64,000 bases of DNA, taken from assembly GCA_977017645.1 (NCBI GenBank), contig OZ360237.1, positions 40,672,001 to 40,736,000 on the forward strand, given 5' to 3'. How positions within the stretch are numbered: position 1 is the first letter of the stretch; the number at the start of each line of letters is the position of its first letter. The notes beneath the pieces were generated by a model, which ran no database searches, was not told the DNA's origin, and saw nothing but the letters and a program-made list of their open reading frames with translations. Positions 6,820 to 39,135 of this stretch are shown piece by piece. The stretch comes from Torpedo marmorata. Lineage: Eukaryota. Position numbers and translations under genes: made by a program.

Positions 6820-7430
6820 ATTTATCCGCTCACAGTACGTGAGCATTTCAGGCGAGGTCACTGTTTATTTGCAATTGCTCCTGAACTGAGTGGTTTGCTG
6901 GCCGTTTCAGAGGGTAGGTAAGAATCAACAAACATTACTGTGGGTCTGGAGTCAAATATAGATGAGACCAGCAAAGAATGGTAAATTTGCCACCCTGAAG
7001 GACATCAGTGAACCTGATGGATTTTGACAACAAAACATTATTACTGGCAAAAATATTACAATTCTGGACTTGTTTAATTTTGTTTAATTCCCTAATTGAA
7101 GTGGTGGGTTTTAAAATCACATCTCTTGTTCTATACAACTATCTTCTGGATTCTAAAGGTAAAGAAAAGTAAAGGTTCCATTATTGTCACGTAATACTAC
7201 ATTTAGAATGTAACATACATGAAATTCTTTAACTTTATCTACCGTAAGGAAGACAGAGAGTCGCTACTTTGTCCAGCGCCCCTCACAGAAATGAGGCCCA
7301 AGCGAGGAACGAGCTTGCAACCCCTGGTTTACAAGACCAGTGCTCTAACCACTGAGCTATTGACTAATAGGCTACAGCACCATCATGGCATTCCAGTAAA
7401 TTTGACACAATACTATCCATGTGGTTTTTA
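6820..7430 (-). mobile_element. Old tRNA-type SINE relic hosting a younger SINE
   Basis: ctgaactgagtggtttgctggccgtttcagaggg...tgtgggtctggagtca...gaaggacatcagtgaacc; tail related to 39405-39460 and 50880-50940. Confidence 0.5.
7154..7365 (-). mobile_element. SINE with tRNA-Thr(UGU)-derived head (7294-7365) and Rex1-type tail
   Basis: Minus strand reads atagctcagtggttagagcactggtcTTGTaaaccaggggttgcaagctcgttcctcgcttgggcct (anticodon stem ctggt/accag, TGT), then a body shared with 39037-39131. Confidence 0.8.
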
Positions 7431-7638
7431 ATAGAAGGTAGAATATTGATGGCTGTTGATATAAAAACATAAGACATGGGAGCAGGAGATGACCATCTGG
7501 CCCGTCAAGCCTACTCCGTCATTCAATAAGATCATGGTAGATTTGGCCGTGGACTCAGCTCCACTTACTTACCTGTTCACCATAACCCTTAATTCCCCTG
7601 CTACTCAAAAATCTATCCATCTGTGTCTTAAGTACATT

Positions 7639-7880
7639 CACAATGCTGGAGAAACTCAGCAGGTCAAACCTGCTGAGTTTCTCCAGCATTGTGTTTTTAG
7701 TTCAATCATGGCATCTGCAGACTTTCATGTTTTACTCCTCTCTTAAGTCTGCAGATGCTGTGATGGTAGTGCAATACACAACAGAGCTGAAGAAACTCAA
7801 CAGGTTACGTACGCAGCATCTATAGGAAGTAAAGGGAGTAAAGTAAAGAAAACATTTTGGGCCTGAACCCTTCATCAAAG
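7639..7880. mobile_element. Cluster of three Penelope terminal fragments in alternating orientation
   Basis: Perfect 26-bp inverted repeat 7639-7664/7668-7693; second 14-bp inverted repeat 7711-7724/7745-7758; degenerate hammerhead at about 7850-7880. Confidence 0.75.
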
Positions 7881-8111
7881 TAGCCTCTACTGCTACCTTG
7901 AGTAGAGAATTCCACAGGATCACTACCCTCTGGGAGAAGGTTCCTCCTCATCTCTGCCTTAAATCTACTCCCCCGAATCTTAATCTGCCCCCTAGTTCTA
8001 ATGTCACCTGTCAGAGGAAACAACCTCCCTGCTTCTATTATGATCTATTCCTTTTATAACGTATGTTTCTTTAAGATCCTCTGCCTCCTTTTAAATTTCA
8101 CTGAATATAGT

Positions 8112-8335
8112 TGTGGTAAACCACTGTATATATGTTTATAGTCGTCTGGACACACCCCTTGCTGACTGTACCTATGGCTCCTCCCACAGACCCCTGAATA
8201 AAGGCCATTGTGCCACAGCTCCCTCCCCAGTCCAGGACAGACGACCAGCATGGACGTGCCTCCATTCCGATGTAAATAAAAGCCTATCAGTTTCTACATT
8301 TCTTCTAGTCTTTCGGAATTATTGATGGTGCATCA
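8112..8335 (+). repeat. Gypsy 5' LTR (224 bp)
   Basis: tgtggtaaacc...ggtgcatca; differs from the 3' LTR by 9 substitutions and one 3-bp indel (counted by eye, about 4%). Confidence 0.95.
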
Positions 8336-8336
8336 A

Positions 8337-8350
8337 TTTTATTTACATCG
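8337..8350 (+). promoter_or_regulatory. PBS-position tract complementary to the element's own LTR (no tRNA-type TGG)
   Basis: ttttatttacatcg is the exact reverse complement of cgatgtaaataaaa at 8268-8281. Confidence 0.75.
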
Positions 8351-8358
8351 TTTTGATA

Positions 8359-9340
8359 ATGGAGCAGATCCTGAAACCAGAAAAGCTGGAACTCGACCCA
8401 CAATCGCCCGAGGCATCCAACAGCTTCGAACACTGTCTGCGTTGTTTTGAAGTGTTCCTGCGGGCCTCCTCTGCAGTCGTTCGATCAGAGGATGAGAAAC
8501 TGCAGGTACTACATTCCCGGGTCGGGCCCGGTATATTCGATGATCAGAGACGTCGAATTGTACCAGAAAGCCATGGAAATACTGAGAAGCCAGTACCTGA
8601 AGAAGGTAAATGAGGTCTACGCTAGGCTACCCGAAAACAGTGACCCGGGGAATCGAGCGCCGAGTACCTACGGGCCCTGCGAGCTCTCGGGCAGGCCTGT
8701 GGCTGCAAGGCCGTGATGGCCGCGGTGAACATGGAGGACCTGATTAGAGACGCCTATGTCGCGGGTATCAGATCCAACTATATACGGCAATAACTGTTGG
8801 AGCAGGGCGAGCTCAACTTACAGAGGGCAGTTGACCAAGCAGGCACGCTAGAAGTGGCCCTCCAAAATATGGACGCTTACTCAGCCGACAACGCGGCCGC
8901 CTCGTGGTTACTGAGGGCATTACCATCTTGGGACACGGGAGAGCCGCAAGCCTGAGGAACACCGCCACCACCACGTCCTGCCAGCGACCCGACCATGACC
9001 GTTATACTCCGCTAGCAACCGAAGTGCTACTTCTGCGGCCTGGACAAGCATCCCAGAAAACGCTGCCTGGCGAAAGACGCAGCCTGCTCTAGCTGCGGAA
9101 AGAAGGGGCACTACACAAAAGTTTGTAAGTTCAAGCCGCACTCAAGACCCAGCAGCACCGCGTGCGAGCAAGGGGCGCCGCTATCTTGGACGCAGCCATC
9201 TTCCCAACCCAGCAGGGCTGTGTGTGGACCATGGGGGCCGCCATCTTGGACGCCGCCATCTTGGGACCAAACACCCGAACACCACACCGCTTCTACGAAG
9301 CCCGACAGCGACTCAATACTGGCCTCCATCACGCTGGATC
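8359..9340 (+). pseudogene. gag: Gypsy gag, frameshifted and with an internal stop
   Basis: ATG at 8359 (MEQILKPEKLELDP); two CX2CX4HX4C knuckles CYFCGLDKHPRKRC and CSSCGKKGHYTKVC at about 9025-9126; TAA at 8791. Confidence 0.85.
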
Positions 9341-12230
9341 AAGGGATTCCTCATCAACTGGCCAGATTGATGATGGACATCGAGGTGGACGGCCACAAGA
9401 CGAGCTGCCTATTCAATAGTGGGAGCACGGAGAGCTTCATCCACCCTGACACTGTGCAGCGTTGCCGCCTCGCGGTAAGGCCGGTAAGCCATAAAGTCTC
9501 CATGGCATCAAAGTCCCATACGGCGGATAGTCGTGGCTACTGTGTAGTGACTCTGACTGTGCTGGGCACAGAGTACAAACACTTTAAACTACTCATCGTG
9601 TCACAGCTCTGCACTGCCGTGTTACTGGGGCTGGACTTTCAATGCCACCTTAAAAGTGTGACGATGGAGAACGATGGGCCCCATCCCCCCCTTACTGGCT
9701 GTAATCCGCAGTTTTTAAACCGTCTACCGCGCTTCACCCACAAAAACTCCCCGGCCTCCCCTCCCACCGCGTCCAGCCAGCAACCCGCAGATTTCCCACC
9801 GCGCACGACCTGCGGCCTTTCTACCTTTACGATCACCCCTCCACCTCTGTTCGCTAACCTTACCCCTGACTGTAAACCCATTGCCACCAAAAGTAGGTGA
9901 TGCAGTGCCGGGGACAGGGCCTTTATCAGGTCGGAGGTGCAGCGGTTATTGAAGGAGGGGATCATTGAAGCCAGCACCAGCCCCTGGAGAGCCCAAGTGA
10001 TGGTGGTAAAGAATGGGGAGAAAAACAGAATGGTCATTGACTACAGTCAGACCATCAACAGATATACGCAGCTGGACGTGTACCCTCTCCCCCGCATAGC
10101 CGACATGGTGAACCAAATCGCCCTATACCAGGTATTCTCCACCATTGATTTAAAGTCAGCATACCACCAGCTCCCTATCCGCCCGGAGGACCGCCAATAC
10201 ACTGCCTTTGAGGCAGATGGCCACCTCTATCATTTTCTGAGGGTTCCCTTTGGCGTCACCAATGGGGTCTCGGTCTTCCAGCGGGAGATGGACCGAATGG
10301 TTGACCAGTACGGGCTGCAGGCTATATTCCCGTATCTGGACAACATCACCATTTGCGGCCATGACCTACAGGATCATGAAGCCAATCTCCAAAAATTTCT
10401 CCAGACCGCCAAATTCCTCAACCTTACATATAATAAGGATAAATGAGTCTTTGGCACAACCCGCCTTGCTATCCTCGGCTGCGTCGTAGAGGACGGAGTC
10501 ATTGGCTCCGATCCTGACCGCATGCGCCCCTGTTGGAACTCCCCCTCCCCCACAGCCTCAAAGCCCTGAAAAGGTGCCTGGGCTTTTTCTCGTACTATGC
10601 CAAGTGGGTCCCCAATTCTGCGGACAAAGCCCGCCCCCTCGTCAAATCCACCTCTTTCCCCTGACGTCAGAGGCCCATGCAGCCTTCAGCCGCATCAAGG
10701 CAGACATCGCCAAGGCCGTGATGCATGCTGTGGACAAATCCACCCCGTTCCAGGTGGAGAGTGATGCGTCCGACTTCGCCCTGGCCGCCACCCTCAACCA
10801 AGCGGGCAGACCCGTAGCTTTTTTTTCCCGCACCCTCCAGGGCCCCGAAATCCGAAAAGGAGGCCCAAGCCATTGTTGAGGCGGTACAGCACTGGAGACA
10901 CTACCTCGCCGGCAAACGATTCACCTTGCTGACTGACCAATGTTCAGTTGCTTTCATGTTCAACAATCAGCAGCAAAGCAAAATCAAAAATGACAAGATA
11001 CTAAGGTGGAGAATCGAACTTTCCACCTACAATTACGATATCTTGTACCGGCAGGGAAAACTCAATGAGCCCCCAGATGCCCTATCCCGCGGAACATGTG
11101 CCAGCGCATAAATTGACCGCTTACTAGCCCTCCACAGCGACCTCTGCTACCCCGGGGTCACCAGGTTCTTCCACTTCATCAAAGCCCGCAACCTACCTTA
11201 CTCCATCGAGGAGGCCAGCACCATGACCAGAAACTGCCAGATCTGTACGGAGTGCAAACCGCACTTCTATCAACCAGACAGAGCGCACCTGATAAAAGCC
11301 ACCCACCCCTTTGAACGCCTGAGCATCGATTTCAAGGGACCTCTCCCCTCCTCTGACAACAATGTGTACTTCCTCAACATCATTGATGAGTACTCACGTT
11401 TCCCGTTCGCCATCCCCTGCCTGGACATGACCACGGCCACAGTCATCAAGGCTCTGCGCAATCTCTTCATCCTTTTCGGGTACCCCTGCTATATTCATAG
11501 CGACCGGGGGTCCTCTTTCATGAGTGACGAGCTGCGTCAGTACCTGCTGGCCAGAGGCATTGCCACGAGCAGGACCACCAGTTACAACCCCCGAGGGAAC
11601 GGGCAGGTGGAAAGGGAGAATGCTATCGTCTGGAAGGCCACCCTCCTAGCCCTAAGGTCTAGAGGTCTTCCAGTCTCCCGCTGGCAAGATGTCCTCCCCG
11701 ATGCGCTCCACTCAATCAGATAGCTCCTATGTACCGCCACCAATGCCACTCCACATGAGAGAATGTTTTCCTTCCCTAAGAAGTCCGCTTCAGGGACCAC
11801 GCTGCCATCCTGGCTGACGTCCCCAGGGCCGGTCCTACTCCGGAAGCAGGTGAGGAGCCATAAACATGACCCACTGGTCGAAAGGGTCCATCTCCTCCAC
11901 GCCAACCCCCAGTATGCCTATGTGACGTACCCTGATGGGCGGGAGGACACGGTCTCCATTCAGGACCTGGCGCCCTCAGGAGTCCCTGACACCATTGCCG
12001 ACCACCCCGCGCCCTCTCCACCTACCGCTACCTTCGATGCACCGAGGCCATGGCAGGTGACCCCAGCCCCTGGGGATGGCATGCCAGATTCGTTGACACG
12101 CATCCACCAAGCCGGCGCCCACGACAACACACAGGTGGTCCAAACAGCACTGGATGCAACAGCTGCGCCGCAGCCGGTACTACGACAGTCGCAGCGGTAG
12201 ACCAGACCACCCGAAAGACTCAATTTCTGA
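9340..12230 (+). pseudogene. pol: Gypsy pol (protease, RT, RNase H, integrase), disrupted
   Basis: LFNSGSTESFI protease motif; IDLKSAYHQ, PFGVTNG and YLDN (RT); ESDASD..LTDQ (RNase H); H..C..C zinc finger, IDFKGP, HSDRG and NGQVER (integrase); premature stops at 9898, 10444, 11109, 11721 and 12198; natural end RPPERLNF* at 12230; no chromodomain seen. Confidence 0.92.
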
Positions 12231-12267
12231 GAACGTTTAATTCACTTCACCCTGCAGGACTCTTTTT

Positions 12268-12282
12268 AAAAAGGAGGGTGAA
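12268..12282 (+). promoter_or_regulatory. Polypurine tract
   Basis: aaaaaggagggtgaa immediately 5' of the 3' LTR. Confidence 0.85.
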
Positions 12283-12509
12283 TGTGGTAAACCACTGTAT
12301 ATATGTTTGTAGTCATCTGGACACACCCCTTGCTGACTGTACCTGTGGCTCCTCCCACAGACCCCTGAATAAAGGCCATTGTGCCACAACTCCCTCCTCC
12401 CCAGTCCAGGACAGACGACCAGCATGGATGTGCCTCCATTCCGATGTAAATAAAAGCCTATCAGTTTCTACATAACTTCTATTCTTTCGGAGTTATTGAT
12501 GGTGCATCA
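12283..12509 (+). repeat. Gypsy 3' LTR (227 bp)
   Basis: Direct repeat of 8112-8335. Confidence 0.95.
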
Positions 12510-12547
12510 ATAGTTACAGGCTACTTAATCTCTCCTCATAAGCTATG

Positions 12548-12705
12548 AGCTCAAGATTCCTTTATTGTCATGTACTAATACACAAAATTCATCAAATTTT
12601 GCCTAGCACACAAAGAGGTGCTACTAGCAAAGCCCAACACCCCCAACAATAAGAGAAAGAGAAGCAAAAGAGAGTCCCTTCAGAGACGCCACTGTGTCCT
12701 TGGGC
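12548..12705 (-). mobile_element. Older non-autonomous retroposon 3' end with TGACAATAAA-type tail
   Basis: Minus strand ends gaattttgtgtattagtacatgacaataaaggaatcttga; body loosely similar to the 7154-7290 SINE body. Confidence 0.45.
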
Positions 12706-12779
12706 ATTTCCGAAATCAACCTGGTGAAATTCCTCTGCAGCATCCCTAAATCCAGTCAATAATTTTTTAAATTAAAAAT

Positions 12780-12892
12780 TCCAGAGACGCACAGGGTTAG
12801 TAGGTTAATTGGTCACATGGGTGTATTTGGGCAGCGCGGGCTCGTGGGCAGAGAGGGCCTGTTACCGTGCTGTATCTCTAACTTAAAAATAA
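12780..12892 (+). mobile_element. V-SINE 3' half
   Basis: gttagtaggttaattggtcacatggg...gggcctgttaccgtgctgtatctctaa. Confidence 0.75.
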
Positions 12893-13110
12893 AGTTTATC
12901 TTTGTAATTTTGTGGATGTTTGCCTTAATCTTTAGTAAGTCTAATCCAAAGACTTTTAAAGTAGGATATTTTATGACAAAATGAATTTAGATTTAGCCAT
13001 TCAGTTTTGTTATACTGTTTATTTATGTTGGATTGAATTAAATATGGTAAGAGTACCATAGAATAGTAATGATAAAATATATGCTAAGAGAAAATAAGCA
13101 TTCAGATATT

Positions 13111-13763
13111 GTGAAACATGAAAGTCTGCAGACGCTGTGATTGTAGTAAAAACACAATAATGCTGGAGGAACTCAGCAGGTTTCGCAGCGTCCATAGGAG
13201 GTAAAGATATTCTGTATAACCAACGTTTCGGGCCTGAGCCCTTCTTCGAGGTATGAGTAAAAAGCAGGAAGGCGCCTGAATTAAAAGGCTGGGGAGAAGG
13301 GAAGAATGGGCAGGGGGAGGAGGACAGGCCAACAGACAAAATGTGATAATTGGACATGGATAGGAAGACAGGAGAGGAAAGGTGAGAATTGATCAGGGAA
13401 GGGTGTGTCTCTGTGAGTACAGAGCTGGAGGAAAGGAGTCAGAGAGAAAGGGGAAGAAAGAGACAGAGCTAGAGGAAAGGATAAGTAGGGATAGAGCAGG
13501 GTTCTTAATTTTTTTTCCATTCACAGACCACCTTAAGTAATCCCTTACTAACCACAGAGCACCTATGGCATAGGATGTCATCGGTGCTCTGTGGTTAGTA
13601 AAGGATTACTTAAGGTGGTATGTGAGTGAAAAAAAAGGTTGAGAACCACTGGGATAGGGGAAGGGGAGAGCCGATGGGGGTGGGCGGGGTCTAACGGGAA
13701 ACTGGAGAAGTCATTGTTAATGCCATCCGGTTGGAGGGTGCCCAGATGGAATATGAGGTGTTG
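13111..13763 (-). mobile_element. Penelope-like element 3' end (end of GIY-YIG ORF, UTR, terminus)
   Basis: QHLIFHLGTLQPDGINNDFSSF matches the C-terminus of ORF 27074..27520; hammerhead motif at about 13215-13255. Confidence 0.85.
13497..13651. mobile_element. hAT/Charlie-type palindromic MITE
   Basis: Termini CAGG-GTTCTTAA / TTGAGAACCACTG; nearly whole-length palindrome; 8-bp TSD ggatagag/ggataggg. Confidence 0.85.
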
Positions 13764-14163
13764 ATGCATTTCATAACTTTTGAATGTCTTTGGGAGGAAG
13801 GTTGTTGGGGTGTATAATTAATGCAGGATCAATATAGTATCATTGCAAAGAGACAATTCCTTTCTGCAGTGAGAATAGTTGCAGATGTTTATAGATATTT
13901 AACTTAGCCTTTGTTCATCTTTGTTTCACCTGTTCAGATATCACTCACAAATCTTGTGCAATTAAGAATACAATTTTTCTTTATCAATCATTTCTTTTAG
14001 TAAAGAAGTACAAAGAGATCACAGTGTTCACACACATACTGTACATCCACTGGCAAAATGTGCAACTGTGGTTGAGTTTTGAACCTACAAAAATATATAG
14101 AAAGTTGGAACTTGATTTTATTTGACATTTTAACCCATTCATGGGATAATTCTAAGAATTAGT

Positions 14164-15085
14164 GGGTGGCACGGTTAGCGTAGTAGTTAGCACAATGCTG
14201 TTACAGTGCCAGCGACCTGGGTTCAAATCCACCGCTGTCTGTAAGGAGTTTGTACGTTCTCCCCATGTGCCCGTGGGTTTCTTCCAGGAGCTCCAGTTTC
14301 CTCCCATGTTCCAAAGATGTTGTTGTTTGTGGAGGAAACGTGGCCTCCCTGCCTGTCTGGAATGTGTGCATTGCGGGTGGTCACGTGTCCTCCCCGTCTG
14401 AAACTTATTCAGAAGTCACATCACCTGTCAATCAAGGTTGGACTCCGGCCACCCATTAGTGCACACCTTGCCGTTGGCTCATTCACATCACCTAGGGTCA
14501 TTATTGACTAAAAGCACAGATTAGCACTGTATATAACACCAACGCACAGCACATTCTTTCTCTCTGCCTCGTGGTCCAAGCCCCGGACATCGCTCCATGC
14601 CAGGTCGCTGCTGTGGACATCGCTGGAAGTGTCGCGGGTAAGGTGTGCACTACACTGAAGCTGAGCCGTAGTATTGCGATAGATCAATACTTGCAGAGAG
14701 CTGCAACCCTGTTGGTCAGGGAACCGGGTGTGTGAGTAAGAGTCCCTGTTTGTAGTGTGTGAGCGGGTTGAGTATAGGTTTACCGTTGTCGGTCCAAACA
14801 AAGTCCGAGGTGAATGTCTATATCGTCGCTTAAGTGAAATAGTGATCGAGTACCGTTTAACGTTCTCCCCTGTTTGTTTCCCGTGTGTTAATAAAAGTTA
14901 CCTGTGATTGTAACACTTGTGTCCAGACTCATCTCTCTATGAACCCACCGAACCTGATTCTCTTCCCAACACGACAGATGTATGGGGTTGGTAGGTTAAT
15001 GGATCACATGGGTGTATTTAGGTGGCGTGAGCACGTGGACCAGAAGGGCCTGTTACGGTGCTGCATGTCTAAATTAAAATGTAAA
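14164..15085 (+). mobile_element. V-SINE split by a solo LTR
   Basis: 5' half ends ...ccaaagatgt (14320), 3' half resumes gatgtatggggttggtagg (14977). Confidence 0.85.
14321..14976 (+). mobile_element. Solo LTR (656 bp)
   Basis: TGTTGT...ACGACA termini, 5-bp TSD GATGT (14316-14320, 14977-14981), TATATAA at 14530, AATAAA at 14890. Confidence 0.88.
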
Positions 15086-15199
15086 ATACTTAGAGCTCAT
15101 TAAATACTTTTATAGTCTTGCCAGTAAATGTTATAATTGTGAGCAGCAGGAGCAGAAAACAAGAAATATTAACTACCATTTTGGAACAGATTGTTGAGT

Positions 15200-15700
15200 A
15201 AAGAATGTTAGCACACTACTGGGATGACCTCCTTTGAAGGAAAGCAGGTAGTTTATGTTGATTCAGAGTGGCTTATCATCTGATCTAACTTTGGCAATGT
15301 GACAACCCCTTGGACTACACTAAAATGTTGTCTGGGCTCAGTAGACAGTGCTCTTGGGTTGTAAGTTGTGGATTCAACCTCTATTTCAGGAACTGGAGCA
15401 CACTGTCACGGTTCACAGTTGTAAACCATAATAAAGCCCCATCTGCTCTCTCAAAGATCCCGTGGATACATTTCAAGGAAGATGAGTGGAGATATCCCGA
15501 GGTCTTGGTGAATATTTATCACCCAGAAATGTGGTATGTATTTATTATTTTATTGATTTGTGTGAGTTTCCAGTGAGAAAATTGGTTATCCTATTTCCTG
15601 CAATAAGTAATTGTAATTCTGAAATTCTTAATTGTTTGTGAAACAATTTGGTACCATCTGTGATCATCAAAAATGCTGTAGGAATAGGAATCCTTCTTTA
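15200..15700. mobile_element. Old Deu-domain SINE relics
   Basis: ccccatctgctctctcaaagatccc..gaggtcttggtgaatatttatc..aaattgg; homologous to 2868-3135 and 41085-41340. Confidence 0.5.
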
Positions 15701-15837
15701 CTTCGACCACAGGAAATCATATAACTTGTAAAGCTGTATTTAAACTGCTTTGACTGATTAAAATGCCAAATTCTGTGAATTCTGTCAATTCATCTAATGA
15801 ATTGATAATGGTTGCACAATGTTCAATTTTATTCATC

Positions 15838-16075
15838 TGGGCAACATGGTTAATGTCGCGGTTAGAGCAACGGTATTACAGCGCCAACGACTGGTGGTTC
15901 AAATCTGCCGTTGTCCGTAAGGAGTTTGTGCATTCTCTCTGTGTCTGTGTGGGTTTCCTCTGGGTCCTCCGGTTTCCTACCATGTTCCAAAGACTTATGA
16001 GGTTAGAAAGTTAATTATAATTGGGTGACATGTGCTCATGGGCACATGTCACCTTCTGTATCTCTAAAAAAAAAT
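15838..16075 (+). mobile_element. V-SINE (decayed)
   Basis: Head and V-domain gtgggtttcctctgggtcctccggtttcc. Confidence 0.8.
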
Positions 16076-16099
16076 GTTAAAAACTCCTCTCCAGTGAGG

Positions 16100-16460
16100 G
16101 AATACATGCCTAAATGCAGCAGGACATGGTCAACATTCAGGCACAGTAACAGTTGCACCGCAAAAATGTTGAGCAATGACCATCTCCAACAAGAGGAAGT
16201 CTAATCACCTGCCATTGGCGTTTGATGGCATTACCATTGGTAAGTTCCCCTTCCATCAACATCCTGGAGGTCACCATTGACCGAAAATAAATCTGCATAT
16301 CGTAGCTACAAGAGCTGCTCACAGGCTGGGTCTTCTGGACCAATCCAGGAACTCCCTCGCATGCTGCACTTCCATAAAGAAGATATTTGCCGCCACTTTA
16401 ATGGGGGCAAGTAGAGATAACCAATTAACGATCACTCCCACGGATGAATTGAAAACAAAA
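16100..16460 (+). mobile_element. Old CR1/L2-like LINE RT C-terminal relic
   Basis: Translates in part as AMTISNKRKSNHLPLAFDGITI...INILEVTIDRK, a typical post-RT segment. Confidence 0.55.
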
Positions 16461-18523: not shown

Positions 18524-18534
18524 CATAAGATTAA

Positions 18535-19785: not shown

Positions 19786-19799
19786 TCTTCACTATGATT

Positions 19800-19933: not shown

Positions 19934-19935
19934 TA

Positions 19936-28890: not shown

Positions 28891-29009
28891 TAAAATTACC
28901 GTGTAGAAATAAATAATGACAAAAAAGATAGATAGATAATAAATATTCCCGGTTACCATAGTGCAAGTAAACAAAAGTGGTGCTACAATAGTGAAAACAG
29001 ATGAAATAT

Positions 29010-30258
29010 GACATAATGGGTGCGGTAGATAGAAGGGAACGGGTTGATGTTGTATATTTGGATTTCCAGAAAGCGTTTGATAAGGTGCCACACAAGAGAC
29101 TTATCAGTAAGTTACAGGTGAATGGAGTCCAGGGAAGTATATTGGCATGGATTGAGGATTGGTTGTCTGACAGGAGGCAGAGAGTCGGGATAAATGGGTG
29201 TCTTTCTGATTGGCAGACAGTGGTAAGTGGGGTGCCACAGGGGTCGGTGCTGGGCCCACAACTGTTCATCATTTACATTGATGATTTGGAGGAGGGGGCA
29301 AAATGTGGTGTAGCCAAGTTTGCGGATGATACTAAATTGAGTGAAAGTGCAAATTGTACTGAGGATGTGGAGAGGCTGCAGAGGGATATATTTAAGTTAG
29401 GTGAGTAGGCAAAGGTCTGGCAGATGGAGTACAATGTTAGTAAGTGCGAGGTTATCCACTTTGGCAAGAAAAATAAAAGAGCAGAGTATTATTTAAATGG
29501 TGACAAACTGCAGCATGCTGTTGTGCAGAAGGACTTGGGAGTCCTTGTGCACGAATTGCAAAAAGTTGGGTTGCAGGTGCAGCAGCTTATTAAGAAGGCA
29601 AATGGAATGTTGGCCTTCATCGCTAGAGGAATTGAATTCAGGAGCAAGGAGGTAATGTTGCAACTGTACAAGGTACTGGTGAGACCGCACCTGGAGTACT
29701 GTGTGCAGTTCTGGTCTCCATATTTGAAGAAGGATATACTGGCCTTGGAGGCAGTCCAGAGGAGGTTTACGAGGTTGATCCCTGAGATGAAGGGGTTGAC
29801 TTGTGATGAAAGATTAAATTGTCTGGGATTATACTCGCTCGAGTTCAGAAGAATGAGAGGAGATCTTATAGAAACATATAGAATTATGAAGGGGATGGAT
29901 AGGATAGAGGTAGGAAGGTTTTTTTCAGGGGCGGGTGAGAGCAAAACTAGGGGACACAGCCTCAGGATTCGGGGGAGTAGATTTAGGACAGAGATGAGAA
30001 AAAACAGTTTTTCCCAGAGAGTAGTGAATTTGTGGAATTCTCTACCCAGGGAAGCAGTTGAGGCTGCTTCATTGAACATATTTAAGGTTCAGTTGGATAT
30101 ATTTTTACATAAAAAAGGAATTAGGGGATATGGGGGAAGGGCAGGTAGGTGGAGTTAGGTCATTGATCAGATCAGCCATGATCTTATTGAATGGCGGAGC
30201 AGGCTCGATGGGCCGGTTGGCCTACTCCTGTTCCTAATTTCTTATGTTCTTATGTTCT
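29010..30258 (+). mobile_element. 5'-truncated CR1 LINE with RT C-terminal half
   Basis: YLDFQKAFDKVPH, GVPQGSVLGP, KFADDTK; a single TGG>TAG stop at 29406 separates ORFs 29001..29408 and 29424..30158; (TTCTTATG)n tail. Confidence 0.95.
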
Positions 30259-30274
30259 TAACATTGAATGGAGA

Positions 30275-30665
30275 CTTCAGCACAGAAACATTCCTTTGGC
30301 TCAACTGCCTTGGGCCGAGTCTGTGCTATAAAAAACCCTCCTCCTGCACCTCTGCATCCTTCCATCCATCCTCTCAACCTGTCGGTTTGGTGCCTGTGCC
30401 AAACAGGTAGTTTTAATATTCTTCCCGCGGGCAGTGAAAATGCTGAACATCCTAAGGAAACGCTCACACTAATCATCTGAGATTTTCATATTTACTGAAC
30501 AATATTTATTTATTTATTTGTACAAATGAACACTTGTCCTGCATATGTATTGTCTGTCTATATGTGTGTTATGTCAGGTTGTGTGTCTGCATGAGGACCG
30601 GAGAACGCTGTTTCATCAGGTTGTACTTGTGCAATCAGGTGACAATAAACTTGACTTGAATTGAA
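30275..30665 (+). mobile_element. Rex1/Babar 3' end (subfamily C)
   Basis: cttcccgcgggcagtgaaaatgctgaac..; tail tgacaataaacttgacttga. Confidence 0.7.
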
Positions 30666-30994
30666 TAACACTGGGGAAAGCCTGAGAGCCCAAACTGAGT
30701 CTGAATTTTCACGACAAGAAATGAATGGAATTCACCTTCTTTTAATGAAGTATATAAGCGCTGCTTTTAGTGGTAACACAGCCAAGTCCCATGAGAAAAT
30801 TTGTCAAAAGCTACATTAAATGTCATGCTTTTGCATTTTGAACGCAGGATATGCTAGGATGGGCTTGCTGCCACCATTGTATAGCTGCACTGGCCACTGG
30901 GAGGTGAGTCAGAGCTTGAAAGAGTCCTCATGGCAAACACAGTACAGCAGGATAAAAGGCTGCCATGATGGTGAGGGAAGATGCAGGACAAGGG

Positions 30995-31400
30995 AGTCAA
31001 GCAACACAGAATTTGCTGGAGGAGTTTATCGAGCCGAGCAGCATCTCTGGGGGTGTGGGGTGAAGAATCGTCAACGTGGTGGTCCAGGACCCTTCATCGG
31101 GACTGAGGATGTGGAGGAGAGAGTGATCATATAATGCGAACAGGGAGTGAAGCAGGAAGGACTGGGGAAAGGAGGACCAGGGAGTGGCAAGGATGATAGA
31201 CTGAGGCAGTCGATGGGCAGATGCCAGATACAGGGAGAGAGAAGCAAAGGGGTAAGGTGGAAGAAGGTGAGTCGTAGAGGGTGGGGTGGGTGATAGGTGG
31301 CGACAAAGGCTGTCCGTGCTGGAATATGATAAGAGTAGGTGATGAGAGACCAGATAGAACTGATGGCGGTGGGGGAAGAGAGGAAATCCAAAGGGAGAAA
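30995..31400 (-). mobile_element. Old Penelope 3' end
   Basis: ttgctggaggagttt..gcagcatctctgg..ggacccttcatcgggact followed by a purine-rich UTR. Confidence 0.5.
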
Positions 31401-31518
31401 TGGAGGTGGAAGAAGAAGAAGGGAGTTAAAATGGCAGCAACGGGGAGGTCAGGGCGGCTATCTTCTCCATTGCGGTCCCCAAGTCTTCTTTCTGGCTGCG
31501 CACCTTCCATGTGGCAGT

Positions 31519-31826
31519 CAAATCAAGTCAAGTTTATTGTCATCTGATTGCACAAGTACAACCCAACGAAACATCGTTCTCTGCTCCTCGGTACAAAACA
31601 CGCAGACACACAACCCAACATAACACACATACTGACAATACATATGCAGGACAAGTATTCATTTATACAAATAAATAAATAAATAAATATTGCTTTGGAA
31701 ATATGAGAGTCTCGGATGGTTAGTGTGAGCAGTTCCTTTGGTCGTTCCGCATTCTCAATGTCTGTGGGATGAAGCTGTTTCTCAGCCTGGTAGTGGTGGC
31801 TCTGATACTCCTGTATCTCTTTCTCT
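31519..31826 (-). mobile_element. Rex1/Babar 3' end (subfamily C)
   Basis: caagtcaagtttattgtca tail; RKRYRSIRATTTRLRNSFIPQTLRMRN. Confidence 0.8.
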
Positions 31827-32199
31827 GGGTGTAGTCTGGGCTGACTGACCCCAGAGCCATGAGTAAAACCAAGCCAATGGTGTGTGGCAGGACGATGAAA
31901 GTGTCAGTGGTCGAAGTTGGTCGCTCACGGTTGGTTTGGGGCCATTGAAGGGAGGGACAACCAGTCCAGTCATTTTCCATTACCACTGACCACTGAGATG
32001 GGCATGTGGTCCGTGCCAATGTTCGAACACTTTCATTCATGCCTCAGCACCAATCCTTGCCCTTTGCACTTTGAGCTTTTCTGTGACTGATCCGCAAAAT
32101 TCATCAGTTGCCCCCAAAATCTCCAATTTCTCGCAGGGCAGTGTGACTCATGATGTCACAAAGTATGTGATTAACACTGACATAATCATCCACACTCAG

Positions 32200-32290
32200 C
32201 AACCACTGAGACGTCAGAAGGGACTCAGCTGGTCAGGTGGCAACTGTGGAGTAGAAATGTTTCGGGTCGGGACCCTTTATCGAGACCACC
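32200..32290 (-). mobile_element. Penelope terminal fragment (TCGATAA-core hammerhead variant)
   Basis: gggactcagctggtcagg..atgtttcgggtcgggaccctttatcgagac. Confidence 0.6.
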
Positions 32291-33296
32291 CTAAGGTGGG
32301 TGGTCAGTCTCCCAGTGGGCACAGTTGCACCTTGAAGTGATTGATTCTGTAATCTACCGTGGCTAAAGCCACTTTTATGCAGGATTTACGCATGGGAAAC
32401 ATATGCAAATGGCTCTGACATCCAGGCGAAGTTTTTCAACGTATAAATAAGCTTTTTTTGTGTCTTCAGTGTTAATTGTCTTTCAAACTAATCAACAGAT
32501 CCAAAAAGCCAACTCAATTAAAATGTGCATTGCCTTTATTATTGCAAAGATGCAAAGACACATTGAAGATGAGCAAAGCCCAGGGGTATTTACTTTGTCC
32601 TCAGTTAGGTCTCATAGTGGATGTATCTTTCAATTTGATTCAGCTATGAACTGCTTGGATGTTCATCAGGCAGAAGTGCATACGCAAGGCCACTGTTTAT
32701 AATTATAAAGCACTTAGTCTGATGAATATGATCAATAGGGTTACCTGCAATAGTATCCATAAACGTTGTGGTGACAAGAAGCTGATGTCTTTACCACTAA
32801 ATATTTCCTGGCATCATCCTCTCGCCCTCATCCCTGTCTGTACTTGAGCCAGTTTTTTTCAACTGGGGGCTTTTTTTTAAATCTCCCCACACACTGAGCA
32901 AGCTGCTCTTAAGCTTAATTCTCCTGACCCCTCAGTGCAGTCGGATATAGTCACCTAATCCTTTTGCTCTTCGATCCTATTTGTGGTTTGACTTTTTTCT
33001 TCCTTCCAGTTCCTTTTCTCTTCCTTTCTCATTCTTTCGGCGCCTCTCCAGGCTCCGCATTCCTCAGTCCTTCCTTGCATTAGCAGCACAGCACAAAGCT
33101 TTCCCAGTGTTAGGGGATTAGTCATTGAGGAGATTGCAGCAACAAGATGCATAACTTTGTGCACAGGAGTGTATGAGGCGCTGTGCTTGTGTGCCAAAGG
33201 GGAAATTGAGAGACACACACAAAAAACAACACCATGGGAAAGAAAAGAAAGGTTATGCTTAACAAGAGCTGAGATGGGAATGATGGAAGGAAATAT

Positions 33297-36200
33297 TTCA
33301 GAATCAGAATCAGAATTTATGGTCATAAACATGTCACAAAATGTGTTGTTTTGCAGCAGCGTTAACAGGTGAAAATATTGCTATAAATTACATTTTTAAA
33401 ATAAATAAAGTATCTGCCTATTTATCTATTTATTTATTTATCTATCTATCTATCTGTTTATGTATTTATTTATTTTTAAAATGTGAAATTAGTGCAAGAG
33501 AAGAGAAAGTAAGGTAGTGTCTCTGGTTCATTGTCCATTCAGAAATCTGATGGCAGAGGGGAAGAAGCTGCTTTTGTTCGTCTTCAGGCTCCTGTACCTC
33601 GTTCCTGATGGTAGCAGTGTGAAGAGGGCATGGCCTGGGTGGTGAGGGTCCTTGAGGATAGAGGCTGCTTTCTTTCTTTTTTAAATCTCTTTATTAATTC
33701 CATAAAATCATGGATATAACAGTTCATTCACTATATACGTTTACAGAAAAAAAGCAAAGAAAAGCATGATCACATGTTCCATTAATCCATCCATAACAGA
33801 GTATACATTACAGATATATATCAATTTCTTTTCTTTACAATTTAGTATTATAATGCCAATAGGTATAAAAAGAACCAAGCCACAAAAAAAAAGATAATAT
33901 AGTAATTTCATCATAATACATTTTTTTATAAAAGCTAAAGCAAACTAAACTAGCCTACCCCACCCCAGAATTGCACTGACCTGAAGAGATAATATAACTT
34001 CAAATAATGAGGAATCATAAACTCAGATAATAGTCCATAAAGGAACCCCAAATATTAGTAAATTTTAGGTTTAATTTAATATTTGAACATCTAATTTTTT
34101 CTAATGTTAAATAGGACATTAAACTTGATAGCCAATCTTCATATATCGGAGGATTACCATCCTTTCATTTTAGCAAGATCTGTCACCTTGCAACCAGAGA
34201 AGAAAAAGCAATCACATGTTTTTGATTATTAGTAAGATCATGATTACTAGGATCATTTATACCAAATTTTGCTATAAATGGATTTGGATCTAATTGAGCA
34301 GCTAAAACCAAAGAAAGAGTACAAAAAAATTTGTTCCAAAATCTAACTAACTTAGGGCACAACCAAAACATGTGAAATAATGTACCTTCATGAACATTAC
34401 ATCTATCACACAAAGATTATATAGTTGATAAAAATTTAGCCAGTAAAGATTTTGAGTAATGAGCTCTGTGAACTACTTTGAATTGAATTAAATTATGTCT
34501 TGCACATAATGAAGAGGTATGGATACGGCCGAAAATATTGGACCACACTGAAGGTGAAAAAACTTCTAAAAAATCTCTTTCCCAAGCCTCCTTCTTTTTA
34601 TCCACATGCTGTATCACATTTTCTTTTGAAAGGTTATAAAATACTGACAATGGTTTTGGTATATCAGGAGTGATAGTAAAAACCTTTTCTATGATTACTA
34701 ACTTTAAATCTAAAGGAAACTCCAATCTCAAGGAATTTATAAAATTCCTAACTTGAAAGTATCTAAAATAATTGTTTCTAGATAAGTTATACTTATTAAC
34801 CAACTGTTCAAAAGTAATAAAATTAGAATCTATAAACAAGTTTTTATATGAACATATACCGTGATCTTGCCAAATCTGGAACCCTCTATCCCCACTAGCT
34901 GGGGTAAAAAAGGTATTGAAATTTATTGTACTATCAAGCAAGAAATTAAGGAAATTATTTGCTTTTCTGAATTGGAACCATATTTTTAACGTTTGTTTAA
35001 CTATCTTGTTATTAGAATTTTGGAATATTTTAAGGGTGAAGGCATTCCTAATATGGATACTAACGAATGTTTACCTATAACCTTCATTTCTGATTTCATT
35101 CATTTAAATCTTTCTTGATAATTCTTAAAATGTATCCAAATATTAATAAATCTAGTGTTAGCACCCCAATAATTCCTGAAATTAGGTAAAGAAAAAACAC
35201 CCTGTGGTTTGTCATTTTGTAGTACTTCCTTTCTTACTCTTGGTCTTTTACCATTCCAAATAAAAGATGAAATTAAAGAGTCTATTTGATCAAAAAATGC
35301 TTTATGGAGAAATACTGGAAGTGCTTGGAATACATACAAAAAATTTTCATAAAATATTCATTTTCATAATGTTTATAGGGCCAATTAATGACATAATTAA
35401 CGGAGACCACCCTTTAGTTAAATGTTTAACTTTATTCAATAGAGGAAGAAAATTCTCTTTATATATGTGATCAAATTTCACTCTAATGTTAACCCCAAGA
35501 TATATTAAATATTTTTAAGTACCTTAAAAGGAACTTGAAATGGTAGTACATGAGGCGATTTTATCACCATTAATTCGCTTTTACCTAAATTCAATTTATA
35601 GCCCGATAAACTTCCAAATCTATCCAGTAATTGTAAAATCACTGGAACAGAATTTTTAGGATCTGAAACAAACAGCAGCAGATCATCTTCATATAATGAC
35701 ACTTTATTTTCCGTTCCCTCTCTTACAATACCTGTAATATTTTCTGATTGTTTAACTGCCAATGCTAACGGTTCCAAAGCAATGTCAAATAATAATGGGC
35801 TTAGTGGACATCCCTGTCTCGTCCCTCGGGATAATTTAAAAGGCAATGATTTCATTGAATTGGTAACAACCCTAGCCAGTGGTGAAGCATAGATTATCTT
35901 AATCCAATTAAAAATTTTGGTCCAAAATCAAATTTCCCCAAAACCGTAAACAGGTAATTCCACTCCACCCTATCAAAGGCCTTCTCAGCATTTAATGAAA
36001 TTACACTTTCAAAGCGAGTCTGCACTAGAGAATATACTATATTTAACAACCTCCTTATGTTGTACTGTATATATCTTCCTTTAATAAAACCTGTCTGATC
36101 TTCCGACATAATTAAAGGCATATTGGGCGATATGAGGCACATTCTAATGGGTCCTTATTCTTTTTTAAAATCAACGAAATAGAGGCTTCATAAAAAGTTG

Positions 36201-36883
36201 GAGGTATTTTTCCTTTATTGAATGCTTCAGCTAAAGTGGTATTTAAATAAGGAATTAATAAATCTGCAAAAGGCTGCTTTCTTAAGACACCGCCTCTTGT
36301 AGATGTCCTCGATGGAGTGGAGACTGATGCCTGTGATGGCGCTGGCCGAGTTCACAACTCTCTGTAGTCTTTTTCTGTCCTGTGCACCTCCTTACCAGAC
36401 AGTGATGCAACCACTCAGAATGCTCTCCATGGCACACCTGTAGAAATTTGCAAGAGCCTTTGATGACACACAAAATCTCCTCAAACTCCTCACGAAATAT
36501 AGCTGCTGGTGAGCCTTCTTCATGATTGCATCGGCATGGAGGCTCCAAGACAGATCCTCGGAGATGTTGACCCCAAGGAATTTGAAGTTCTTGACCCTCT
36601 CTACTACTGAGCCCTCGATGAGGACTGGGTCGTGTTCTCCTGACTTCCTCTTGAAGTCCACAAGCATCTCCTTGGTTTTGCTAATGTTGAGTGCAAGGTT
36701 GTTGTTGTGACACCACTCAACTAACTGATCTATCTCCCCCCTGTACAGTTCCTCAGTGCCATCTGTGATTATGCCGACGATCGTGGTGTCATGGGCAAAT
36801 TTGTAGATGGCATTGAAATTGTGCCTAGCCACACATTCATGAGTGTAGGGCGAGTAGAGCAGTGGGCTAAACACGCATCCTGA
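33297..36883 (-). mobile_element. Rex1/Babar (subfamily B), split by L1 (parts 33297-33674 and 36271-36883)
   Basis: (TCAGAA)n tail; GCVFSPLLYS, YKFAHDTT, FKFLGVNISEDLSW. Confidence 0.9.
33675..36270 (-). mobile_element. Older, fragmented L1-clade LINE (distinct subfamily)
   Basis: EDQTGFIKGR, AEKAFDRVEW, GTRQGCPLSP, CDRC..HMFWLC in several frames; 13-bp TSD aggctgctttctt at 33662-33674 and 36271-36283. Confidence 0.9.
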
Positions 36884-37399
36884 GACTAAAAAACAGAGAA
36901 AAAAGATGTAAAGATTATTTGTTGGCAATGGGCCTGGAAGGTAACTGATGCTGAAGTCTTCAAAATCGCTGAAGTTCAATATGGTGGGTATGAGGGTTGC
37001 AAACTGCATATTCTATCTGGTACAAAGTCTGCCATATTGGATTTAAGCACAGCTGTTTGTCCGATTATTTTCTCAGAATAAACCGTGTGGCCCAATCAAG
37101 TCCATTGTTAGTTTTGCTTTGGAAACTGTTCTTTTTTATGCCCTTGTCATACAATGGCTAAGCAAAGAAAAGGAAAAGTGACACAAAGTTGGACATGGCA
37201 CTAGCATCACTCCCCCTTCGCCCAATGACTACCTGTCTGGTGACTGCTTTATCTCGTCAGACTGATAGGCAATGGGAGAGGGTTGGGAAGGGAAGACTAC
37301 TCCTCCATGGACGGGAAAATGTAAGTCACGTCGCCACGCAATGCCCAAACCATGTCTCCCATTAATTGGCCACCCTTCAACACCAGCATGAGGAGGAAG

Positions 37400-37652
37400 A
37401 TTAAATTTTAAATGTAGACATACAACACAGCAACTGGCCCTTCCCGCTCAAGCGCCCATGCCGCCCTAATACACCCAATTAACCTACAGTCCCAGTGCGT
37501 TTTTGAAGGGTGGGAGGAAACCGGAACACCCAGAGGAAACCCATGCATACACGAGGAGAACGTATAAGCTCCTTACAGACAGTGACAAATTCAAGCCCAG
37601 GTCGCTGGCGCTGTAATAGTGCTGTGCTAACCGCTACGCTAACCGTGCCATC
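37400..37652 (-). mobile_element. V-SINE
   Basis: Reverse complement of the family pattern. Confidence 0.85.
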
Positions 37653-38774
37653 CTAAAGATGTGAACAAATTAAAAGAAAAACATTGAATTAAAAGTAATT
37701 AACCAAGCTCAGAATGACTAACACATGGTAGTGAATGTTGAAAAAGTGCACTCATAAAATGCAATGATAAAGAAAATGATCTTGTCTGGTACAAACCTCT
37801 TTTGGAACCTGCCTGATACCTTATAGACTCATGGTGTAATAGAGCCTTAGAACAGAACAGGCCCCTCAGCCCAGCATCCATGCTAATCAAGTTGGCGTTC
37901 TGGGCTACACTCATTTGTGTGGATGGGAGGGGTTTGGAAGGGGATGGGTATGAACATGAGCATGAATGAATATGAGAGTTTATTGTCATATACTTAACTA
38001 CAATGTACAGAGTCAGGTGGTTGTGAAGCTTGGACGATAACCTGAAAGGTGGTGGTGCTTGGGAGCTGCTGGCTGGACACCTTGGTAAGTAACTGCAGTA
38101 CATTTTGTAGATTGTTAGAAAGAGTGAATGTCCTTCACCAAGCTCGAGAAGTCACTGGTCCATGTCTTTCCAAACCCTTCATATCCATACATCTGTCCAA
38201 ATGTGAGATAATCAATCATTTGCTTGGCGCTATTAAATCCGTCTGATCTCACTGCCAAACCAGTGGTGACACAGTTCTTGATTGCTACAACATGAACCAA
38301 TAATATGAAAGTCAAATGTATTTTTACAGAAGTTAGCTTTGCAAGGATCTGTCATGACATCTGCACTGAACCAGTGACTTCTCCAGCTTGGTGAAGTAAA
38401 GGTTTTGAACTAGCAATAAAACAAAATGAGACATTAGATTTCCACAAAACATCTGAAGCCAATCGGCGCCCATGTAATCAGTTATGTTGCAACACGACAT
38501 TATTCAAGAACACATGGCAAATAAAAAACTCTGAAAAAGAGCGAAACATTGAGAAGCTTAAAGAAATGGGAGCAAATGTTAAATTGAGCTGTGATGTTCC
38601 AAAAAAAAACATAGTGCTGGTCTTTAAGTGAAGCAGAAATGAACCATTCTGAGGCTGCTGAATCAGTGCTATATTTTTTTAAATCTGTGTGATTGTTCAC
38701 AGATAGGAAGGCTAATTAAGGTAAAAGGGTGCTATATTCAATTAAGGTGAAACATGAAGGTTTACAGATGTTGT

Positions 38775-38875
38775 GTTTCAGGTGCCTACCGGCATTTTGC
38801 TCTTACCTTGAAGAAGGGATCAGCCCAAAACATCGGTAATATATCTTTACCTCCAGCATTTTTGTGTTTTTACTA
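38775..38875 (+). mobile_element. Internally deleted Penelope terminus with hammerhead-like motif
   Basis: ttacc-TTGAAGA-a-ggga-tca-gccc-aaaa-ca-tc-ggtaa then ctccagcatttttgtgttttta. Confidence 0.6.
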
Positions 38876-38924
38876 TATTCAATTGGCATCACTTTTGCCC
38901 CCTTAAACTCATGTTCATATGTGA

Positions 38925-39135
38925 CAGTACCAATAGCCTGGATATGACTGAGATTGTCTGATCTCAGAAGCTAAGCAGGTACAGGACTGGTCAGTACTTG
39001 GAGGGGAGACTGCCTAGGAACACCAGGTGCTGTAGGTTTCTGTGACCCTCTGTCTGCCTTACGGTAGACAAAAATTAAAGAATTTCATGTATGTTACATT
39101 CTAAATGTAGTATTACGTGACAATAATGGAATGGA
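38925..39135 (+). mobile_element. SINE with 5S rRNA-derived head (about 38925-39036) and Rex1-type tail
   Basis: gtctgatctcagaagctaagcagg (box A) ..tcagtacttggaggggagactgcctaggaacaccaggtgctgtagg (box C, 5S 3' end), then a tail shared with 7154-7290. Confidence 0.82.

Follow-up and report, generated by a model that had tools for sequence, protein, structure and literature searches.

Two sister SINE families with a 5S rRNA head and a tRNA-Thr head on one 3' unit

Introduction

As a rule, head exchange between short interspersed elements (SINEs) has been deduced from pairs that are old and diverged. RSg-1, a LINE whose tail is found under more than one kind of head, is of the Rex1 type. Several systems that resemble the one treated here are described in the parts of the papers drawn on below. 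In the coelacanth, CoeSINE4 (tRNA) and CoeSINE5 (5S) likewise bring two heads into one genome on a similar LINE-derived 3' part and, in those parts of the paper, have no conserved body domain; however, that 3' part consists of the 5' and 3' UTRs of an RTE element, whereas the present one corresponds to the 3' terminus of a headless element whose end is Rex1-like, the CoeSINE bodies are similar whereas those here are identical at 116 of 119 positions, and the printed CoeSINE sequences, compared by eye only, look unlike this family (PMC5786205). The springhare pair Ped-1 (5S) and Ped-2 (tRNA) and the moth pair HaSE3 (5S) and HaSE1 (tRNA) likewise have one partner LINE and a common 3' sequence, but the partners are Bov-B or other RTE elements, the hosts are different and HaSE1 has an extra central domain (PMC3747384, PMC5786205). 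In salmonid fish, OS-SINE1 (5S) and SlmI and HpaI (tRNA) also put both heads on one LINE tail, that of RSg-1, but the bodies of OS-SINE1 and HpaI are of the Deu and the CORE kind, respectively, whereas here the head is joined directly to the donor end (PMC3747384). Furthermore, both Bov-tA, which comes from Bov-A, and Kojima's model likewise make a SINE from a headless non-autonomous retroelement and a Pol III head (PMC5786205, PMC4494074); in the model, a non-autonomous LINE acquires its small-RNA head through a template switch (PMC5786205). In comparison with Bov-tA and Bov-A, only the last ~115 nt of the donor are kept here.

The pattern of two-headed sister SINEs is already published, and this family is a new and unusually clear example of it. 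An earlier note on this DNA had allowed that both forms might already be described; the pattern is indeed in print (CoeSINE4/5, Ped-1/2, HaSE1/3), but no description of the family itself was found in the openly accessible literature, outside Repbase, Dfam, SINEBase and subscription papers.

The two copies in the window

The window, that is, the whole stretch of 64,000 nucleotides that was analysed, contains a tRNA-headed and a 5S-headed copy with the following parts.

7154..7175, minus strand: short tandem 3' tail of 5-6-nt units (from the sequence)
7176..7288, minus strand: shared 3' unit with tRNA-form letters and three predicted hairpins (donor alignment, fold prediction)
7289..7293, minus strand: 5-nt junction, CA and three T (comparison with the variants of other copies)
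7294..7362, minus strand: tRNA-Thr(TGT)-derived head, tRNA nt 5-73 (Rfam, comparison with the true gene L187)
38924..39039, plus strand: 5S rRNA-derived head, 5S nt 5-120, with box A, IE and box C regions (Rfam, host 5S array on C25)
39040..39131, plus strand: shared 3' unit with 5S-form letters and a private 22-nt deletion after 39045 (sequence, copy comparison)
39132..39136, plus strand: the final five bases repeated once, where a tandem tail is usual (from the sequence)

An Rfam scan gave a tRNA match on the minus strand (7299-7362, 42.2 bits) and a 5S rRNA match on the plus strand (38920-39038, 41.7 bits), both above the gathering score. These matches confirm the two heads seen by the earlier note but shift their limits: the tRNA match begins at nt 5 (7362), nt 1-4 being lost (nt 1 would fall at 7366), and the 5S match begins at 5S nt 5, at 38924 and not at 38925. 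The body start tttctgtga, said to follow both heads, is shared as claimed, but its first TTT is the end of the 5S head, 5S nt 118-120 by gapless alignment, and homology to the donor element starts one triplet further on, past the TTT, at 7288 in the tRNA copy and 39040 in the 5S copy. The 57 identical terminal nucleotides and the loss of about 22 nt from the 5S copy, both pointed out before, are borne out. The longest stretch identical in both copies is 57 nt (7176-7232, minus; 39075-39131, plus), and the copies are 94% alike across 88 nt (E 1.5e-33). The 22-nt gap sits between two GA dinucleotides and occurs in no other copy compared: the other 29 loci keep the stretch, one without 2 nt at its start and one 5'-truncated inside it.

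The tRNA head of the window carries the family changes C48T and A58T and private changes at 6, 51, 54 and 67; ARAGORN calls no tRNA within the window and recognises one in 41 of 60 tRNA-headed copies elsewhere. Of the 116 nt of the 5S head, 92 match the host 5S gene. No target-site duplication is seen around either copy. The letters gccta ahead of the tRNA copy, which had been likened to a 5S 5' end, are flank and not a leader common to other tRNA copies, and as a 5S remnant they are rejected; this flank matches nothing else among the loci examined. Directly upstream of the same copy (7373-7382) lies a 10-nt match to the 5S 3' end, without other support.

Two families across the genome

Exact junctions of the shared unit number 17,842 genome-wide for the 5S head, on both strands, and 1,220 for the tRNA-Thr head, which bears out the proposal that two sister families, a SINE2 and a SINE3, share a single 3' unit; with these counts, the reading of either head as a one-off chimera fails. 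A 47-nt piece of the tail has 14,955 exact matches in the genome (control 0), and the first 30 of them in position order carry the 5S head in 25 cases and the tRNA head in one, four being unassigned or headless. As in SINE3, the 5S-headed elements are short, dispersed and near-identical in many copies of one structure, with a 5S rRNA-derived head that includes box A, IE and box C. As in SINE2, the tRNA-headed elements are a dispersed multi-copy family with diagnostic letters of its own and a tRNA-derived head with A and B boxes, position A58 lying within the B box. Both forms are about 2% from their own majority (median 1.7% for the 5S form), with no age difference between them (p 0.29). In the copies compared, body haplotypes are linked to head type, and these head-linked letters indicate separate master lineages. 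The head swap had been called recent: young as the copies are, the swap predates the burst in this genome, since both heads are also present in contigs or reads of three other organisms.

Small RNAs fused many times independently to LINEs, in the manner of U6/L1 chimeras, are not SINE families, and 5S and tRNA examples are described for L1 (PMC11838501). By the chimera-versus-SINE test, as applied in PMC4494074, this class is refuted here and deserves practically no credence: each head has one fixed junction in >19,000 copies altogether, the heads bear fixed changes against the host genes, body letters are head-linked, and headless LINE copies with this tail do not form a larger pool.

The further idea that the tail repeatedly captures Pol III RNAs did not hold up. 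A third head was found neither among the 30 position-ordered tail matches nor among the 20 junction variants inspected out of 340 matches with altered junction letters (16 with 5S, one with tRNA and three unassigned, of which L103 is by eye a deleted 5S head), and neither the 5S nor the tRNA-Thr head was found on another tail as a family. Apparent one-off captures do occur, each fused to another SINE: four are precursor tRNA-Thr that retain the genomic trailer, and one is a host-type 5S that retains its T-run. All four tRNA chimeras keep A58. As for insertion sites, 12 of 49 copies share at least 6 nt between their flanks (shuffled mean 3.1, maximum 10), several of these matches overlapping the tail repeat or resting on wrong start calls, and no target-site rule is claimed; L128 alone looks like a flush target-site duplication, of about 20 nt.

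The shared 3' unit and its donor

The shared 3' unit (~115 nt) is homologous along its whole length, at 81% identity, to the 3' end of a headless, GC-rich, non-coding retroelement of ~0.65-0.85 kb, with alignment scores of 140-147 against shuffled maxima of 38-42 (three donors). This donor, for which at least 1,067 and 648 pattern matches were counted genome-wide, is older than the SINE families. In two donor copies the longest frames, of 218 and 153 aa, are not shared. The SINE body is colinear with one continuous donor end, and, judged from the donor alignment, all that follows the junction aligns to it, so there is no room for a conserved Deu-, CORE- or V-type central domain.

While the bodies of both forms agree with each other at 116 of 119 positions, they agree with the donor majority at only 97 of 119 and 97 of 120. 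Against the donor, both have the same breakpoint, the same 4-nt deletion and about 20 shared changes, including loss of a T-run: at least four T in a row stand in 22 of 30 donor tails and in 1 of 58 SINE bodies of both forms, which are thus practically without internal Pol III terminators. Because both SINEs lost the T-run, which would stop Pol III, the Pol III-adapted unit probably arose once and the second head was swapped in later. The same shared features argue against two separate events in which the donor gained a 5S head and a tRNA head independently; we regard these as very improbable, even though this genome repeatedly gives rise to chimeras of Pol III RNAs and the 3' parts of CoeSINE4 and CoeSINE5 are similar, not near-identical, in the part of the source drawn on (PMC5786205).

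The tRNA-Thr head and its junction

The tRNA head equals the tRNA-Thr(TGT) gene at L187 and L193 save for A58T (77 of 77 copies) and C48T (73 of 77), so that it lies 1-3% from its gene with 1-2 fixed changes in 73; an old subfamily that keeps C48 has four copies among the loci examined. The head would act as an internal type 2 Pol III promoter. A58T alters a conserved B-box base and is expected to weaken the promoter; nothing on A58 loss in SINE heads was found in openly accessible papers. The changes of the tRNA head at 58, 48 and 8 all fall on tertiary-pair positions.

The 2-nt leader of gene L187 is present in 14 of 26 full-length tRNA copies (background 0.05, p 5e-12), and the junction variants CG (about 26 of 40 non-A matches) and TG (3) fit the start of the L187 trailer and point to CG as the ancestral junction. 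The head therefore bears leader and trailer letters of a precursor, without CCA. These junction variants and the gene-type leader point to a precursor tRNA as the source, and capture of a mature tRNA with a CCA remnant is rejected. In the donor L242, CAT stands just ahead of the homologous start, and the junction letters are also readable as donor-derived.

The letters of leader and trailer would both be kept, too, if the terminator of a tRNA-Thr gene had received a 5'-truncated SINE or donor copy, which was then read through from the gene promoter, and 5'-truncated bodies that start at or near the junction exist (L101, L102, L234). But a precursor RNA carries the same letters, the true isodecoder genes L187 and L193 are both without a SINE downstream, and truncation exactly at the head-body boundary beside a 4-nt target would be a rare coincidence, which makes this DNA-level origin improbable. 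It differs from the template switch favoured below in the joining step alone.

The 5S head and the order of the heads

The majority of 33 copies of the 5S head agrees with host 5S at 13 of 15 positions in box A, 5 of 6 in IE and 15 of 18 in box C, with conventional box limits, and at 32 of 45 in nt 5-49. Altogether 94 of 116 positions are identical, and this distance of 19% equals that of the body from the donor. The head would act as an internal type 1 Pol III promoter.

The explanation that we consider probable is that of two sister SINE families, the 5S-headed one first, whose head was later replaced by a precursor tRNA-Thr through a template switch of reverse transcriptase (RT). A 5S-headed SINE would have arisen once on the ~115-nt donor-derived 3' unit, and the precursor tRNA would then have replaced its head as RT switched templates where Pol III transcripts end in oligo-U. 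Each head would drive Pol III transcription internally (type 1 or type 2), and the hairpinned 3' unit would be recognised by a Rex1-type LINE protein, the RNA being copied into new sites. Fixation of A58T may reflect removal of the m1A58 block to reverse transcription, and the change may also loosen the tRNA fold, the would-be substrate of RNase P and Z. That the 5S head came first is itself given slightly better than an even chance, because it stands 19% from host 5S and the tRNA head only 1-3% from its gene.

The opposite order, in which a precursor tRNA joined the donor end and a diverged 5S-like head (from a variant 5S class or a lost SINE3) replaced it and won this lineage, is unlikely but has several observations on its side. 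Bodies of the tRNA type retain donor-like letters that are changed in the 5S form, such as a G in the A-run; this G, at L126:1536, accounts for 97-98% of the depth in X1 and X7, which are runs of other organisms, and four old-type copies of this genome have it too. At L126:1568, the letter of the 5S type makes up no more than 3.7% of the depth in X1 and 2.7% in X7, matching the residual A at 1536 (1.8%, 3.0%), so that the 5S form resembles a single derived haplotype throughout. In addition, tRNA copies with a stepping-stone haplotype exist here, and the junction of the tRNA form may keep three more donor letters. Moreover, the derived A of the 5S form also stands in the main tRNA subfamily of this genome, so that 5S first needs recombination or parallel change. 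On the other hand, tRNA first would have the tRNA head fix A58T alone while the body moved 19% from the donor, and no source of a pre-diverged 5S head was found: of 35 matches with other 3' letters, the 30 read are interrupted, deleted or duplicated copies of the 5S-headed SINE, and four host-type 5S variants are all unlike the SINE head. Ray 5S classes, too, differ at few coding sites in the part of the source drawn on (PMC3123226).

Rex1 as a possible partner LINE

Mobilisation may have been by Rex1, judging from a likeness at the level of motifs: RT frames with PF09004, which we take as the mark of Rex1, end in the same short motif and 5-6-nt repeats. The alignment with the Rex1-type tail of the window scores 29, within the shuffled range (mean 26.7, maximum 43). 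None of 30 donor-type tails has an RT of its own upstream and the top 30 PF09004 loci are from a family whose tail is different; no autonomous partner LINE was found among these loci. For a bipartite Rex1 donor, two endonuclease-upstream regions, and only two, were compared and neither matched.

Head dominance in other organisms

The 5S form prevails about 15:1 here and in organism B, and the tRNA form is apparently dominant, about 20:1, in organisms A and C, the figures for the other organisms coming from one placement of reads, on a tRNA-headed copy. In run X10 the tRNA part is without read cover and is not counted as absence, and A58T, seen in the copies of this genome, is not inferred for other organisms. 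A tentative picture, which we hold possible, is that of one body with two competing Pol III promoter types, in which the winner flips between related lineages and a near-perfect tRNA head is just beginning to escape tRNA modification and processing. If true, the lineages would amount to a natural experiment on the reasons for the success of a SINE head. In addition, type 1 (5S) promoters are suggested to be poorer drivers of SINEs than type 2 (tRNA) promoters in the part of the source drawn on (PMC8010984), and the flip in dominance, if true, would be a direct test of that suggestion.

Significance

Annotation of tRNAs will be misled by the ~1,200 near-perfect look-alikes of tRNA-Thr, which compare with about four true genes, and the young insertions are phylogenetic markers. 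The three sources remain in the genome: the 5S array, two tRNA genes and the donor element. With young, near-identical sisters, these surviving sources and one-off captures side by side, the birth of a SINE becomes readable almost base by base.

Two SINE Families with a Common Body

The window, which lies in a genome of 6.2 Gb whose repeats point to a cartilaginous fish, probably a ray, carries one SINE headed by tRNA-Thr(TGT) (7154-7365, minus strand; the tRNA form) and one headed by 5S rRNA (38925-39135, plus strand; the 5S form), and both heads have Rfam matches:

7299-7362, minus strand, tRNA
38920-39038, plus strand, 5S rRNA

An exact stretch of 57 nt, inside 88 nt of 94% identity, is common to the two copies, so that the earlier note, which described one body behind two Pol III heads, reported a real feature and saw it correctly. 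A 22-nt gap is private to the window's 5S copy, no target-site duplication was seen at either window copy, and the single masked stretch (45881-46092) is distant from both.

Genome-wide, a 47-nt piece of the tail has 14,955 exact matches (control, 0), and the exact 5S junction has 17,842 against 1,220 for the exact tRNA junction, about 15:1; on the note's own test of two head types, both are therefore multi-copy families. Of the first 30 tail matches by position, 25 score as 5S, one as tRNA and four as neither, and L084 retains a few 5S letters, as judged by eye. The note had also considered a tail that repeatedly captures Pol III RNAs, against which stands the result that no third head was found among the tail matches or the altered-junction copies examined. 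Furthermore, a tRNA head with T58 on another tail was not found among 9 matches (one copy with an indel, another inverted, a truncated chimera and six gene-type tRNA-like heads), and the search for a 5S head with other 3' letters gave 35 matches, 30 of which were examined and are broken or duplicated copies of the 5S-headed SINE.

Three body sites carry letters linked to head type, so the 5S and tRNA forms come from separate master copies. The median distance from its own majority is 1.7% for each form (29 bodies each, reduced from 30 and 35 by dropping copies with interrupted tails). Judged from sequence divergence, both forms are young, and no age difference between them was found.

Some copies are peculiar in structure. 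Ten near-identical 5S-headed copies spaced about 42-52 kb apart (L318-L327, G000:C45:16.2-16.6 Mb) reflect a single old insertion repeated within a large tandem array. At L010, L012, L039, L203, L343 and L349 the first 10-20 nt of the head are directly duplicated at the 5' end, and such short duplications are typical of template slippage ending reverse transcription. In a tRNA-headed copy at L192 (about 1440-1600) the T-arm and junction are inversely duplicated beside an AT repeat. Elsewhere in the window, degenerate gag-protease-RT-integrase frames with several stops (8375-12200) presumably represent a Ty3/Gypsy-like LTR retrotransposon, and strong hairpins with weak miRNA-model scores at 13536-13610 and 49390-49777, recurring as an inverted pair, are probably MITE-like DNA elements.

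Origin of the Body

A scan of loci for related 3' ends led to the donor, a GC-rich element without a head, non-coding and about 0.65-0.85 kb long, with at least 1,067 matches to one pattern and 648 for the subfamily with the closest tail. Over its final ~120 nt the donor runs colinear with the whole of the SINE body, and consequently the SINE consists of a head and a donor end, without a separate body. Three single donors share 98-101 of 118 positions with the SINE body (scores 140-147; shuffled maxima 38-42); by majority sequences, the donor agrees with the two SINE bodies at 97/119 and 97/120 positions, and these with each other at 116/119. Donor copies lie about 11% from their own majority, and the donor is therefore older than the SINEs. 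Donor-type elements (L053, L067, L033, L082, L383:2284-3131, and a 5' piece at window 63875-64000) fall into several subfamilies; their 5' start is fixed, and their 3' end is Rex1-like.

A run of at least four T occurs in 22 of 30 donor tails and in one of 58 SINE bodies. Because four T terminate Pol III transcription in vertebrates, the loss common to both forms is best read as one inherited adaptation. The predicted fold of the body has three hairpins (z -2.6 in one tRNA-form copy and -4.4 in one 5S-form copy), as would be expected of a 3' end recognized by a LINE protein.

The Two Heads

Two true genes, L187 and L193, were found for the matching tRNA-Thr(TGT), while ARAGORN called 41 of 60 tRNA SINE heads tRNA genes and about 1,200 SINE heads genome-wide are near-perfect tRNA-Thr(TGT). 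Relative to these genes, every one of the 77 ungapped copies has A58T and 73 have C48T (the set mixes position-ordered and selected loci), and T8C marks a subgroup of 13. In tRNA, positions 8, 48 and 58 take part in tertiary pairing, and the methylation that A58 normally carries either halts reverse transcriptases or leads them into error; C48 sits in a CpG, so C48T requires no selection. The acceptor stem has a predicted pairing of 0.96 in the gene, but the median over 26 full SINE RNAs is 0.05.

The junction CA was considered as a CCA remnant and rejected, since CG and TG variants fit the L187 trailer and the gene leader is kept. Of the 40 junctions that lack A, CG stands in about 26, matching the trailer start of L187, and TG in three; the 2-nt leader of L187 is found on 14 of 26 full-length tRNA copies (p 5e-12). 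The tRNA head thus derives either from the gene itself or from a precursor transcript. In the donor, too, CG or CA directly precedes the homologous start, which gives two possible sources for the junction letters.

In the host, the 5S genes lie in an array on C25. The 5S head aligns with them ungapped to nt 120 (94/116 identical), with higher identity in the promoter boxes (33/39) than in nt 5-49 (32/45), and the three T of the junction align with 5S nt 118-120.

Other Organisms and Order of the Heads

The element is present in 20 of 24 sequencing runs listed, with half or more of its words in 12; these represent 11 studies and at least 7 coded organisms, with shares of at least 0.38, one possibly being the source of the Torpedo marmorata assembly. 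In contigs of runs X1, X2 and X7, from three organisms, the tRNA junction is covered and 5S loose ends occur there in all. Depth just before relative to after the junction is about 0.94 in X1, 0.95 in X7 and 0.025 in X2 (contig depth, not copy number), and the 5S-type letter at position 1568 of locus L126 takes 3.7%, 2.7%, 54% and 89% of contig depth in X1, X7, X2 and X10, respectively. The two measures agree, within one data set and as contig depth rather than copy number, on a lead that head dominance may flip between organisms.

The 5S head is somewhat favored as the first: 5S head and body each lie 19% from their source, against 1-3% for the tRNA head. The opposite order, which is less likely, is consistent with donor-like letters retained in tRNA-type bodies, including the donor's G in four old-type tRNA copies (L131, L139, L280 and L347) where both main forms here have A, and with the same G in most of the depth of X1 and X7. 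At two body sites all four letter combinations occur among tRNA copies, so recombination or parallel change is needed under either order.

Proposed Mechanism and Mobilization

Primary transcripts of Pol III end in a short U-run, and three T join each head, 5S or tRNA, to the body. A reverse transcriptase that had copied the body would have its cDNA end on this run, from which it may have switched to the U-run at the end of a different Pol III transcript. One-off fusions were found at the following loci:

L188, L189, L190 and L194, about 1450-1800
L302, about 1405-1750
L301, partial

Four consist of a precursor tRNA-Thr that belongs to another isodecoder and still has its genomic trailer; all four keep A58, and two match gene L191 up to its T-run. 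One is a host-type 5S including the T-run. All five are joined to the 5' end of another tRNA SINE, which is abundant in the window and which we take to be HE1-like. Four one-offs in nine matches of one narrow search suggest that such captures may be common. Template switching is a published model (PMC5786205, PMC5499810).

Mobilization of both SINEs by Rex1 is likely but unproven. PF09004 RT frames in the window and other loci end in the SINEs' short motif and 5-6-nt repeats; likeness to Rex1-type tails past this motif is not significant, and no autonomous partner LINE was found, either upstream of 30 donor-type tails or among the 30 best PF09004 loci. Rays rank among the richest in Rex1 (PMC13343379).

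Known Counterparts and Significance

tRNA- and 5S-headed SINEs sharing one tail are described for CoeSINE4/5 and HaSE1/3 (PMC5786205) and for Ped-1/2 and OS-SINE1/SlmI/HpaI (PMC3747384). The head-pair pattern is already published, and the present family is a further example. No published account of this family was found in the literature searched; supplements of Rex1 or manta-genome papers may hold one, and repeat databases lay outside the search. Its value is clarity, the source sequences persisting in the genome and the sister SINEs being near-identical, and it offers two testable leads, the dominance flip and the early tRNA-escape changes in the head. Moreover, according to PMC5786205, the bipartite non-autonomous elements on record are confined to RTE, Ingi, Vingi and R2, and the donor-type element, if it is a Rex1-derived bipartite element, would be new.
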